40,741 nucleotides of DNA from a virus. Its lineage: Duplodnaviria > Caudoviricetes. Made by a program: the position numbers and the translations under genes. The stretch covers positions 1-40,741 of the IMG/VR virus record IMGVR_UViG_3300028072_000011; one strand, 5' to 3'. The notes below the pieces were generated by a model. That model was not told the origin of the DNA. It did not search any database and saw nothing but the letters and a program-made list of their open reading frames with translations. Numbering within the stretch: position 1 is the first letter of the stretch; each line of letters opens with the position of its first letter. Shown here piece by piece: positions 33,814 through 40,741 of this stretch.

Positions 33814-33842
33814 ATCTTACCATATTAAAGGTTAAAAGTCAA
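33814..33842 (-). promoter_or_regulatory. Minus-strand sigma70 promoter (leaderless)
   Basis: TTGACT (33842-33837), 17 nt spacer ending TGG, TAAGAT (33819-33814), 6 nt before the ATG. Confidence 0.7.
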
Positions 33843-35770
33843 TGTTTAATCCTCCCATTCGTGGACGAAAAATTAATAAGTCTGAACCGCCAAAACGACC
33901 AAATGGAGATTTAGGCCAAGGAGCTGAAACTTTAATAAAGATTGCAGGTGATTTAAGGTCTTTGGAAGAAAAAGCAAGTCAGAAGGTAGAAGAAGTAGAT
34001 AAAAAGATTGTAGAGATAGATCAATTTAAGGAAGAAACCAAGACCGAAATTGAGAGCATTAAAAACGAAGCGTTAGATACTATTAACGCAGTCAAACAGG
34101 GACCGCCCGGCCAAGATGGGGAAAGTCCCGAACCACTGGACGAAGAAGCAATTGTAGAGAGCATTTTAGCGAAATTACCACCACCTGAAAAGCCAATAGA
34201 CAGAAAGGCACTGATTAAGGATATTATTAAGGCCATTCCTGAAAATAAGGGAAGTTTGAAAATCATTCAGGAGCATTTTGAAACAGACCCGATGTCCGTT
34301 ATTGAAAAAATAATGGCATTACCGCCGGGAAAGTTTAAGTTAAAAACAGAACACATTGACGGACTAGAACAAACGATTAAGGCATTCAGAAGTCAACTGT
34401 CAAAAGGTTATTTACATGGAGGTGGATTAAGTGAAGTAAGTCACGATTCAAGTTTATCCGGCAAAGGAACACCGGCAAGCCCTCTTGCTGTTTCAGGGGG
34501 CAGTTTTGGTACTACCGGACCAACTGGCCCAACAGGAGGCAGAGGTCCTACTGGGCCTACCGGAAGTGGTGGTACGGGCGGAGGAAGTGGGTTAAATAAC
34601 TCTTTTAATGTAAATCAGGTTGCTCATGGATTTAGCGTAGGAAATATTGTAAGAAGTAACGGAAGTGATAATGTATTTACTTTAGCCGAGGCTGATAGTG
34701 CTACAGATGCCGAAGTTATTGGAATTGTAACAGCGGTTGCTGATGCTGATAATTTCACTATTACTACAAGTGGATATGTTGCTACGGGCGTACCAGCACA
34801 AGTGGCTGGTACAGTTATGTTTCTTGACCCAGCAACTCCGGGAGCATTAACAGCTACTGAACCTACTACTGTTGGACAAGTATCAAAACCTTTAGCGATT
34901 ATCATTGCAAATGCATCCTCTATGTTGTTTAATAACTTTAGAGGAGAATTACTTTCTACTCCCTCTGTTGGTCCTACTGGACCTACCGGATTGACTGGCG
35001 TTACTGGACCCACTGGACCCACAGGTATAACGGGACCTACTGGACCTACAGGACCACAAGGTACCGCTGGTGCGAACGGAGCTCAAGGAACAGCAGGTAC
35101 AAATGGAGTTACGGGTCCCACCGGACCCACTGGAGCTCAAGGAACAGCAGGAACGCAAGGTATACAAGGAACAGCTGGAGCAAATGGAGTTACTGGTGTT
35201 ACTGGACCTACCGGACCACAGGGAACGGCTGGCACCAATGCTGTCCTTACCGGAGCAACGGGCCCTACTGGCGTGACAGGACCAACCGGCCCCCAAGGAA
35301 CCGCTGGCACTAATGCTATATTAACAGGTGCGACTGGTTTAACTGGACCCACAGGACCTACTGGTCCAACTGGTTTGACGGGAGTTACTGGACCTACAGG
35401 ACCGACCGGACCCACTGGCCCAACAGGCACACTATTGCCTACAGTGGCTTCAACAACTTCTTCTGCCACGCCAGCACCAGTTGCCAGTGCTAATGGATAT
35501 GACCTTTTTGAACTTACTGCACAGGCGGTTACTGCCGCATTTCAACCCCCAACTGGATCACCCGTAGATGGTGCTGAATTAAATATTTTAGTAGTAGATA
35601 ATGCTACAAGGAGAGCAATCACATGGTCAACAGCAACTGGAGGATATTTAGGAAATTCACCTGCACTGCCATCTTTTACAGTAACAAGTAAAAATAATAT
35701 TTGGTCTTTTAGATATGTTACTGCAAATTCTGTTAATAAATGGGTATTATTCACTTCAGCTAATGGTTAA
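33842..35770 (+). CDS. Collagen-like fibre protein 1
   Basis: N-terminal coiled coil, central beta domain, long Gly-X-Thr tract, C-terminal globular domain shared with the next gene. Confidence 0.85.
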
Positions 35771-35778
35771 GTAAAATT

Positions 35779-38730: not shown

Positions 38731-39624
38731 ATGCCAAGAATATCAGCCGTATTAATTGTAAAAAACGAAGAAGCACTATTATCTAAATGTTTAGACTCTG
38801 TTAAGGGAGTTGACGAGATAATTGTTTGCGATACCGGAAGCCAAGATAAAACTGTTGAGATAGCAAAAAAATACACCGACAAAGTTGTCTTTTTTGAATG
38901 GTGTGATAATTTTGCAAAGGCAAGAAACTATGCAAAATCATTTGCTACCGGGGACTGGATTTTATCCATTGATGCTGACGAATACTTGCATGACTTTTCA
39001 AAACTAAAAGAGGCTATTGAAGAAGCGGACGCAAAAGGAATGTTAGCCATTAATGTGACTATGGTAGCCGAAGATAACGGGCAAAAGTTTGCATTCCCAA
39101 GAGTATTTAAGAATTCACCACAAGTTTGGTGGGAGGGGGCTATACATAATCATATTAGCGTGGTAGGTGAAGACATTGGAAGTGTGCATATTACTCATGG
39201 ATACAGTCCGGCACATTTATTAGACCCTAATCGTTCTTTTAGGATTTTGGAAAAAGAAGTAAAAGAAAAAGGTAACGGCCGGGAAATGTACTATTTAGGC
39301 CGAGAATATTGGTATAGAAAAGATTATGAAAGTTGTGTACGAATGATGGGAAGATATGTACAAGTATCAAGGTTTATTTCAGAAAAAGCAGACGCATTCT
39401 TAATTATGGCACGATGCTATTTTCAAATGGGAATGGGTGACGATGCAAGGGATGCATGCGTACAGGCATTAATTCTAAACGCAAACTTTAAGGAAGCGTT
39501 ATTGTTTATGGCTAGGTTGGCCGGGGACGGAACAGGCAATGCCAAATGGCAAAAGAATGCTGATCAATGGAAACGAATGGCCGCCACTGCCGACAACAGC
39601 GATGTATTATTTATCAGAAACTAA
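38731..39624 (+). CDS. GT2 glycosyltransferase with C-terminal TPR repeats (protein O-glycosyltransferase architecture)
   Basis: ISAVLIVKNEE..L..CL.SV..VDEIIVCDTGSQDKT, F..ARN, WILSIDADE, W.G.IH, ITHGY, YYLGREY TPR. Confidence 0.92.
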   Translation: MPRISAVLIVKNEEALLSKCLDSVKGVDEIIVCDTGSQDKTVEIAKKYTDKVVFFEWCDNFAKARNYAKSFATGDWILSIDADEYLHDFSKLKEAIEEADAKGMLAINVTMVAEDNGQKFAFPRVFKNSPQVWWEGAIHNHISVVGEDIGSVHITHGYSPAHLLDPNRSFRILEKEVKEKGNGREMYYLGREYWYRKDYESCVRMMGRYVQVSRFISEKADAFLIMARCYFQMGMGDDARDACVQALILNANFKEALLFMARLAGDGTGNAKWQKNADQWKRMAATADNSDVLFIRN

Positions 39625-40176
39625 ATGAATTTGTTTTTAAGCCCACATGACGACGATAACGTACTTTTTGGAGCATTCACATGTATGAGGGAAAAGCCAT
39701 GTGTAGCTATCGTAGCGGATAGTTATAGGCAACCAATGCGAGGAGAAATAGGATGTGATGCAATAACAAGAGCAGAAGAAACATTAAGGGCCTGCTCAAT
39801 ATTGGGCTGTGGTGTGGTCCGCTTTGGTATTGGCGATAACTATGATGATGAAACGTTTGAAGCATGTGTTAGGCGTTCATTAGTTAATTTTCAGGGGTTT
39901 GAGAAGATTTATGCCCCTGCCATTCTTGAAAATGGAAACGCACAGCATAACATTGTAGGCAAAGTAGCCGGTGAAACTTTTGGAAATAGGGTTGTATACT
40001 ATATGACGTATACAAGAGATAACCTTTATATCAAAGCCAACACTGAAATTATACCAACATTAGATGAATTAAGGATTAAAGAAAATGCGTTAAGTTGTTT
40101 TCAATCACAAATAAAATTAAATGCCACAAGACCGCACTTTGATGCAGTTAGAGGTAAAAGCGAATGGATACTTTAA
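39625..40176 (+). CDS. PIG-L/LmbE-family N-deacetylase
   Basis: LSPHDDD..LF, RAEE...AC.ILG, GNAQH, K..AL.CF.SQ. Confidence 0.85.
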   Translation: MNLFLSPHDDDNVLFGAFTCMREKPCVAIVADSYRQPMRGEIGCDAITRAEETLRACSILGCGVVRFGIGDNYDDETFEACVRRSLVNFQGFEKIYAPAILENGNAQHNIVGKVAGETFGNRVVYYMTYTRDNLYIKANTEIIPTLDELRIKENALSCFQSQIKLNATRPHFDAVRGKSEWIL

Positions 40177-40741
40177 GATCAATTATTATAGGGTTTGAAG
40201 GGGAAGTGGGAAGTGCCATAAAAGAAATACTACAAGAAGCATACCCTGACCATGTTTCAGGTATTGATGTGCATGGAAAACATACTGACAGTTTTGGCAG
40301 TTTGACAGGAAGTTTTGATATTATGCATATTTGTTTTGGTCACTCAAAGGATTTTATAAAAATTGTGCAAGAGTACCAAAAAAGATACCAACCAACATAT
40401 ACAGTTATACACAGTACAGTACCATTGGGAACTACTGAAATACTAAATCACACTTCATATACTGTTCATTCCCCAATTCGTGGACTGCACCCAAAACTAA
40501 AACAAGGCATATTAACATTCCCAAAGTTTATTGGTGGTCCGGCCGCTTCTCATGTAGCTGATTATTTTAGAAAGGCAGGAATGAAAGTAGTCATATTTGA
40601 CAGATCTGCAACCACAGAAGCATTAAAGTTATTTGACACTGAATATTACCGGCACTGCATTGAGTTTGCACAAAGGGTTAAAAAATACTGTGATAAGCAC
40701 CAATTAAATTTTTCAGAAGTGTATACTATCCCAAATATTAC
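40164..40741 (+). CDS. 5' part of a UDP-glucose/GDP-mannose dehydrogenase-like protein (234 aa in total after circularisation, ends at 254)
   Basis: MDTLRSIIIGFEGEVGSAI Rossmann start, MHICF, VIHSTVPLGTT, HSPIRG, TTEALKL. Confidence 0.8.
   Translation, partial: MDTLRSIIIGFEGEVGSAIKEILQEAYPDHVSGIDVHGKHTDSFGSLTGSFDIMHICFGHSKDFIKIVQEYQKRYQPTYTVIHSTVPLGTTEILNHTSYTVHSPIRGLHPKLKQGILTFPKFIGGPAASHVADYFRKAGMKVVIFDRSATTEALKLFDTEYYRHCIEFAQRVKKYCDKHQLNFSEVYTIPNI
40615..40741. repeat. Terminal direct repeat (right copy)
   Basis: Identical to 1-127. Confidence 0.95.

Follow-up and report, generated by a model that had tools for sequence, protein, structure and literature searches.

A glycosyltransferase that accompanies threonine-rich collagen-like fibers in an uncultured bacteriophage and probably glycosylates them

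Collagen glycosylation by a dedicated enzyme has been described in Clostridioides difficile, in which SgtA, composed of a GT-A domain and tetratricopeptide repeats (TPR), is encoded directly upstream of bclA3, the gene of the exosporium collagen BclA3, and transfers beta-O-GlcNAc to Thr, and to Ser as well, in GPT-collagen peptides (PMC7157674). BclA glycosylation is also covered in PMC8968730. With respect to folding, (Gly-Pro-Thr)10 stays as a coil unless it is glycosylated, viral collagens contain TGP and Thr-rich triplets at an anomalously high frequency, charged collagens depend on salt bridges, and glycosylation has been proposed as a substitute for hydroxyproline, its timing relative to folding being stated as unknown (PMC11923368). 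The charged Escherichia coli prophage collagen EPclA, recombinantly made, was unglycosylated (PMC3368898). Searches of an open-access library listed no study on glycosylated phage collagen fibers. Here we analyzed a window of 40,741 bp, which is the whole stretch of the viral record IMGVR_UViG_3300028072_000011. It encodes three Thr-rich collagen-like proteins and a cassette of sugar enzymes headed by a glycosyltransferase with a GT2 domain and C-terminal TPR helices (GT2-TPR).

The likeness observed between this locus and SgtA/BclA3 is one of domain plan and gene neighborhood: in both cases an enzyme with a GT-A domain followed by TPR is encoded close to a GPT-repeat collagen gene. The present enzyme differs from SgtA in being on a phage, one gene off the collagens, and in its length (297 vs 358 amino acids). 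It is accompanied by a tailoring cassette of about ten enzymes, whereas the SgtA study did not identify the enzymes that extend its glycan chain (PMC7157674). Furthermore, the substrate of SgtA is the spore exosporium of a sporulating bacterium, while here the genes belong to a complete phage genome. By analogy, the present system may work like SgtA-BclA3, but on the virion. We consider it probable that GT2-TPR O-glycosylates Ser and Thr in the Gly-X-Y repeats of the three predicted virion collagens, the remaining cassette probably extending or tailoring the glycan. As the lead enzyme adjoins Thr-rich but not charged collagens across the sampled viruses, the phage likely sugar-coats its own fibers, and glycosylation would likely replace hydroxyproline and salt bridges in these collagens. 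An earlier note on this DNA had already proposed the glycosylation of Thr collagens by GT2-TPR. This part was strengthened by the co-occurrence of both genes, the kinship of the enzyme and the biochemistry of SgtA, whereas the virion location and the glycan functions given there are retained as predictions.

The association was studied by a collagen-first scan of viral contigs, blind to glycosyltransferases, using the motifs GPT, GPQ and GDK. The first 80 loci per motif were taken (from 140, 126 and 120, respectively) and those on the same contig were merged to give 224. After removing 19 without a recoverable collagen open reading frame (ORF) of at least 10 triplets, one of which had the enzyme, 205 loci remained; these are fragments, and habitat was uncontrolled. 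Full-length GT2-TPR was present in 26 of the 96 loci whose best collagen ORF had a fraction of Thr at the third position of the Gly-Xaa-Yaa triplet (Yaa-Thr) of at least 0.3, and in none of the 109 loci below this value (p 3e-10). With a threshold of 0.5 the figures were 23/60 vs 3/145, and the two control scans alone gave 6/33 Thr-rich vs 0/105 Thr-poor loci. The per-ORF maximum replaced post hoc a Yaa-Thr value pooled per locus (24/88 vs 3/127), because the three pooled exceptions also bear a Thr-richer collagen. A hidden Markov model seeded solely on homologues of the present enzyme yielded 25/96 vs 0/109, and the pattern also held in three strata of G+C content. For a check on whole records, 50 were drawn per motif set, of which 45, 48 and 48 were examined (GPT, GPQ and GDK, respectively). 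The independently built family phrog_13126, to which GT2-TPR is matched (E 1e-36), was detected in 15/45, 4/48 (plus one weak match) and 1/48, and the generic GT2 profile (PF00535) gave 15, 11 and 2 matches. GT2-TPR separated GPT from GPQ records (p 0.004). The generic GT2 failed to do so (15/45 vs 11/48, p 0.36) and was rejected as a marker. By estimate, (GPT)3G is carried by about 9,700 stored viral stretches. An extreme case of Ser/Thr-rich repeat was a viral protein of 3,000 amino acids with about 900 GSS/GTS triplets (L045:2-9010).

The association was also apparent when starting from the enzyme. The 85 loci of this set formed 50 clusters at 80% identity, 34 of them with at least 5 kb upstream. 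A Yaa-Thr collagen was present in 27 of these 34, and a collagen with Ser/Thr in at least half of its triplets was found in the locus in 31 and elsewhere in the record in two more; the remaining one is a 13-kb fragment. In several enzyme-linked collagens it is position X that holds Thr or Ser (GTA, GSQ, GTQ), which suggests acceptors at more positions than Yaa. Among 33 relatives of the phage by its capsid (13 of them at least 90% complete), only one carried GT2-TPR, 23% identical to the present enzyme. It was also the only relative with a long Thr collagen, located in the same locus (97 triplets, 65% Yaa-Thr), and four others had collagens of 10–11 charged triplets and lacked the enzyme. The co-occurrence of Thr collagen and GT2-TPR across phages, proposed in the earlier note as a check, was therefore found in the collagen-first scan, in the enzyme clusters and within the capsid family. 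In addition, a cultured carrier was identified: Tunturiibacter phage Tunturi_5 (PP885688, L709), whose GT2-TPR (gp35, 24% identical) lies about 3.7 kb from the tail fiber gp29 (110 triplets, 60% Yaa-Thr; genes at 12001-13104 and 16813-21222).

Several data weigh against this interpretation. The sampled phages are not phylogenetically independent, and the enzyme matches collapse into 13 clusters at 50% identity and 7 at 40%. GT2-TPR was not seen in 70 of the 96 Thr-collagen loci, though many are fragments, nor in 4 of 10 near-complete GPT records, two of which have 63% and 98% Yaa-Thr; of these, one carries two other GT2s. Conversely, phage PaBG has a distant family member yet its collagens have only 7–28% Yaa-Thr, which led us to reject it as a test phage, and no Thr collagen was found within 41 kb around the family gene of an Erwinia phage. 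In MW202524 a distant GT2-TPR lies two genes past the capsid gene with zero collagen matches. The link between enzyme and collagen is strong, and obligatory in neither direction. Finally, the promoter of the cassette and its lipopolysaccharide (LPS)-type enzymes also fit a host-surface moron, in which the whole cassette would remodel LPS, S-layer or pilin glycans of the host so as to exclude superinfecting phages, its association with collagen being positional.

The genetic organization of the locus bears on this alternative. The sugar cassette extends from 38731 over the join of the circular genome to 5680 (7,564 bp, 18.6% of the genome). This bears out the run of about 7.6 kb and 19% (38731-40614 plus 1-5680) previously noted, the circle being closed by a 127-bp terminal repeat. 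However, its description as tightly coupled was not supported, since a gap of 105 bp with a promoter and a hairpin parts it from the fiber-gene block. Exact matches to the sigma70 consensus numbered 2 genome-wide vs 0.11 expected, the second site preceding the exonuclease and replication genes. Owing to its own consensus promoter and the hairpin in the gap, the cassette is likely its own transcription unit. The hairpin was rejected as a terminator, as the U-run is absent. Besides the consensus promoter, the moron is favored by being the published default for glycosyltransferase islands by tail-fiber genes in pelagimyophages, where such phage sugar islands are read as host O-chain modifiers (PMC7029224). 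We regard it as improbable here: no hydrophobic segment above 1.5, and thus no membrane segment, was found in the cassette or fiber proteins, and integrase and repressor gave no match among the 46 proteins scanned with Pfam and PHROGs. It also leaves unexplained the 26/96 vs 0/109 distribution and why GT2-TPR, and not the generic GT2, separates GPT from GPQ records. A Gtr-type serotype-conversion cassette was rejected for similar reasons, as it implies a membrane flippase/transferase and a temperate lifestyle.

GT2-TPR is a soluble protein in which TPR helices follow a GT-A (GT2) domain, and is predicted to be an initiating protein O-glycosyltransferase. Its nearest solved relatives by sequence were GmaR (E 2e-31, GT domain only) and ThuS/SunS (E 1e-13). 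The structural model (pLDDT 95.8) gave SunS/ThuS as best Foldseek matches (TM 0.68), well above teichoic-acid glycosyltransferases. Listeria GmaR is a flagellin O-GlcNAc transferase, and all these best sequence and fold matches (PDB 22AO, 7MSN, 7MSK) have protein or peptide acceptors. SunS and ThuS, unlike the predicted role of the present enzyme, are glycocin S-glycosyltransferases, and the score against the SunS family model TIGR04195 was 66 bits, under the cut-off of 350. At least 120 homologues at about 60% identity or more were found. The search for a cellular orthologue in the genome scan gave partial matches only, none exceeding 40% identity across more than 150 amino acids. In the phylum of a Candidatus Daviesbacteria metagenome-assembled genome (MAG), 42 of 301 genomes had matches, restricted to the GT domain. 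The TPR domain and this kinship with protein glycosyltransferases also argue against DNA hypermodification as a defense against restriction. DNA bases are indeed the acceptors of some phage glycosyltransferases (PMC12619734), and phage sugar islands have been read as DNA protection (PMC10202952, PMC12619734), but no hydroxymethylase, TET/JBP or DNA polymerase match appeared among the 46 proteins, ORFans remaining, and we give this explanation hardly any credence.

Table 1. Collagen-like genes, regulatory elements and sugar cassette (window coordinates; NDP, nucleoside diphosphate; SAM, S-adenosylmethionine; SDR, short-chain dehydrogenase/reductase; MCP, major capsid protein).
Feature	Coordinates	Strand	Evidence
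Collagen 1	24539..25039	+	N-domain of about 73 aa and 28 Gly-X-Y triplets; directly 3' of MCP gene
Collagen 2	33842..35770	+	PF01391; conserved N-domain, 60 triplets, C-domain common to collagen 3
Collagen 3	35779..37488	+	PF01391 E 3e-43; 105 triplets; two CBM5/12 modules (PF02839 E 2e-9, 2 stretches)
Thr/Ser/Gly-rich ORFan	37492..38625	+	adhesin-like in appearance only
sigma70-type promoter	38631..38658	+	TTGACA-16-TACAAT, 11/12 matches to consensus
Hairpin in predicted 5' leader	38678..38720	+	13-bp perfect arms; -29.2 kcal/mol, z -4.84
GT2-TPR, predicted initiating protein O-glycosyltransferase	38731..39624	+	PF00535 E 4e-20; weak TPR E 7e-5
PIG-L-like de-N-acetylase	39625..40176	+	PF02585 E 9e-4, weak, under cut-off
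Truncated NDP-sugar dehydrogenase-like protein, 234 aa	40164..40741 over join to 254	+	TIGR03026 E 4e-6, weak
HNH endonuclease within cassette	292..654	+	PF13392 E 2e-14
Gmd, GDP-mannose 4,6-dehydratase	635..1651	+	PF16363 E 1e-113 (380 bits)
Short hexapeptide-repeat acyltransferase	1648..2004	+	PF00132; WbbJ-like E 5e-27
SAM methyltransferase 1 (MT1)	2006..2479	+	PF08241 E 1e-8
Cys-rich ORF within cassette, 51 aa	2476..2631		
DUF6625, predicted GT-A fold glycosyltransferase	2624..3451	+	PF20330; model pLDDT 95
Atypical short SDR, epimerase-like	3466..4194	+	PF01370; F96-x-x-x-K100; best models heptose epimerase
SAM methyltransferase 2 (MT2)	4160..4741	+	PF08242 E 3e-5; phrog_3382
HxGH nucleotidyltransferase, RfaE-II/TagD-like	4738..5145	+	PF01467; TIGR02199 E 1e-23
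Small viral GT-like protein (last GT)	5129..5680	+	QDDD motif; Atlas features

The three collagen-like proteins are predicted to be virion fibers. Thr occupies Yaa in 26/28 triplets of collagen 1 (93%), 35/60 of collagen 2 (58%) and 77/105 of collagen 3 (73%), so the previous statement that this position is almost always Thr in all three holds for the first and not for the others. Triplets with Ser/Thr at X or Y represent 100, 83 and 92%, respectively, charged residues in the repeats are 0/84, 1/180 and 1/315, and the longest uninterrupted runs comprise 8, 30 and 15 triplets. The location of a third collagen gene by the capsid gene, already noted, was confirmed: it is that of collagen 1, likely a capsid decoration, while collagen 2 is likely a tail fiber. 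As a relative has, in the slot following its capsid gene, a separate ORF of 76 amino acids with 40% identity to the N-domain of collagen 1, the Thr collagen tail of the latter appears to have been grafted onto this domain in the present phage. The C-domain of collagen 2 is 63% identical to that of collagen 3, and its N-domain has homologues in capsid relatives, some of them truncated where the locus ends. The position next to the capsid gene (24539-25039; L027-L037, L555-L667) was hypervariable among capsid relatives: in many it holds a protein whose N-terminal hydrophobic helix precedes a GxTNY/FD motif, and in others an HNH-like gene or non-collagen fibers. A perfect 13-bp hairpin (24498-24525), also lacking a U-run, separates the capsid gene from collagen 1; this one and the cassette hairpin are possible translation or processing signals.

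The cassette had been described as following two collagens and an adhesin. Both collagens are indeed upstream, but the presumed adhesin had zero family matches in profile searches. Homologues of this ORFan adjoin GT2-TPR in relatives L020 and G149. It could itself be an acceptor, like the capsid, instead of or besides the collagens; mycobacteriophages glycosylate capsid and tail tube (cited in PMC12363180, PMC12619734), and the enzyme by the capsid gene of MW202524, described above, fits this possibility. Since the enzyme is absent in 32 of the 33 capsid relatives and its presence tracks collagen composition, we find such acceptors quite unlikely.

Regarding the downstream enzymes, the gene list of the earlier note mostly matched. 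The exceptions were the weak PIG-L and dehydrogenase assignments, the last GT, without Pfam or PHROG match, and the HNH gene and 51-amino-acid ORF, which it did not list. The dehydrogenase-like protein scored 25.9 bits vs a TIGR03026 cut-off of 189.8, the full enzyme having three domains and about 410 amino acids; Lys155 and GGHC are retained, and the C-terminal domain is missing in all five full-length homologues (213–234 amino acids). Gmd covered the full length of model TIGR01472 with 402.5 bits (cut-off 415). The DUF6625 protein is predicted from its structural model to be the third GT-A enzyme of the cassette: the 50 VIA matches listed were all GT-A-type transferases, Foldseek gave E values of about 1e-4, and the top VIA match was a capsid glycosyltransferase of chlorovirus PBCV-1, tied with two others (Z 12.0, rmsd 3.5, 180 aligned). 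In the metal-site region the family consensus is DxD and the present protein has N-M-D113, D113 being invariant. Extended SDR sugar epimerases and reductases have a catalytic YxxxK motif; in the alignment of this SDR, Phe replaces the Tyr in 5/6 homologues. The Atlas look-alike clusters of the last GT bear GT2/GT64 on only 16–42% of their members.

Two further claims were not sustained. The system is not self-contained, as no sugar-1-phosphate guanylyl- or uridylyltransferase was matched among the 46 proteins scanned, so that UDP- and GDP-sugars, SAM and acetyl-CoA of the host would be required. Neither could GDP-6-deoxyhexose or uronic sugars be assigned: with an SDR without Tyr, a truncated dehydrogenase, a nucleotidyltransferase of RfaE-II/TagD type and gmd in only 1 of 11 DUF6625-bearing relatives, the sugar cannot be named. 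The scarcity of gmd, together with the absence of the acyltransferase and the nucleotidyltransferase from the 50 representative enzyme loci, is compatible with a split function, in which GT2-TPR adds one sugar to the collagens while Gmd, the acyltransferase, the SDR and the nucleotidyltransferase alter a host glycan or are passengers. Relative G149 pairs GT2-TPR with Thr collagen without the cassette, and the best models of the downstream enzymes are LPS enzymes. Fusions in relatives argue against this explanation: GT2-TPR is joined to either PIG-L or the last GT (L501), PIG-L to DUF6625 or MT1, and MT2 to the last GT (three relatives). So does the core order of the cassette, which recurs in phages of 37–63% G+C beside different capsid families. 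We consider a split function unlikely, although the least so of the alternatives discussed. The enzyme content of related cassettes varies, with a sugar C-methyltransferase exchanged in, or else a set of formyltransferase, DegT aminotransferase, GNAT and dehydratase (L004:12719-13990, L016:9745-10809, L500:2655-5573).

Returning to glycosylation of the phage's own collagens, the following mechanism may be proposed. The cassette would be transcribed from its sigma70 promoter, a site observed in the sequence and presumably active, and having its own promoter the enzymes would be ready ahead of the late fibers. GT2-TPR would then attach an initial sugar to Thr/Ser, presumably, if it resembles SgtA, a beta-GlcNAc taken from host UDP-GlcNAc. 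According to peptide chemistry, this sugar would let the short, almost uncharged and hydroxyproline-free repeats adopt the triple helix. PIG-L, two more GT-A-type enzymes, two methyltransferases and the acyltransferase, linked through the fusions, would build a variable outer glycan by a chemistry that is proposed here, with donors supplied from host precursors by Gmd, the truncated dehydrogenase, the atypical SDR and the nucleotidyltransferase. As (GPT)10 needs glycosylation to fold, charged collagens use salt bridges and the charged EPclA is unglycosylated, we infer a structural role for the first sugar; the outer glycan may serve for shielding or adhesion.

Virion glycosylation encoded by the phage itself is also described for mycobacteriophages Che8, Corndog and Myrna, whose acceptors are capsid or tail-tube subunits and not collagen repeats. 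Giant viruses (Mimivirus fibrils, chlorovirus capsid glycosyltransferase) likewise have clusters of lineage-variable genes whose products synthesize and tailor the sugars of the particle surface, but their hosts are eukaryotic and Mimivirus L230 acts on hydroxylysine, not Thr (PMC9614988). A broader proposal, whose merits we judge evenly balanced, is that collagen fibers form two classes, one charged and salt-bridged and the other Thr/Ser-rich and folding only once the phage GT2-TPR glycosylates it, a mobile cassette then adding a swappable methylated glycan coat to head and tail fibers. This form of virion glycosylation would be widespread in environmental phages and hitherto undescribed, and DUF6625 would be a new glycosyltransferase family. 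The Thr dose-response with its controls, the within-family contrast, the fusion network, the DUF6625 fold and the cultured carrier Tunturi_5 are the new elements, and they provide a candidate enzyme family for viral Thr-collagen glycosylation, whose presence follows collagen Thr content, and a cultured phage to test it. If this is true, glycosylated fibers are a common trait of phages from soil and water, many phage islands considered LPS-modifying need rereading, and GT2-TPR could fold recombinant collagen without prolyl hydroxylase.

The genome is a complete circle of 40,614 bp with nearly all genes on the + strand, and belongs to an uncultured, podovirus-like phage. A Logan contig (40,644 nt), whose origin is probably the same sample, contains the region 33000-40741 undivided and with zero differences. 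The only sequencing run matching the genome is a soil metagenome, probably its source, and no RNA run was listed among the matches. Pfam and PHROGs identified the large terminase, MCP, GroEL, exonuclease, replication initiator and resolvase but no DNA polymerase among the 46 proteins; portal, adaptor, nozzle and ejection genes were assigned from position and size only. tRNA, Rfam and PADLOC searches of the genome yielded zero matches. The capsid profile pointed to no host, with 0/401 genomes from the Ca. Daviesbacteria MAG's phylum and 0/201 from the phylum of a Flavobacterium genome. A Shine-Dalgarno-like motif precedes 3 of 42 gene starts, the leaders being A-rich, and this scarcity together with the sigma70-consensus promoters is only a hint about the host. 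The GroEL-like chaperonin (14948-16456, 502 amino acids) scored under the curated cut-offs and is kept in several capsid relatives; GroES had no match among the proteins scanned. The product of 14255-14536 is an Acb2/Tad1 hairpin-domain protein (PF24729, E 6e-7, over cut-off), a candidate sponge for anti-phage signaling molecules. Finally, a putative endolysin (6710-7768, weak peptidoglycan-binding match) and a small transglycosylase-like protein (8328-8672) adjoin membrane ORFs.

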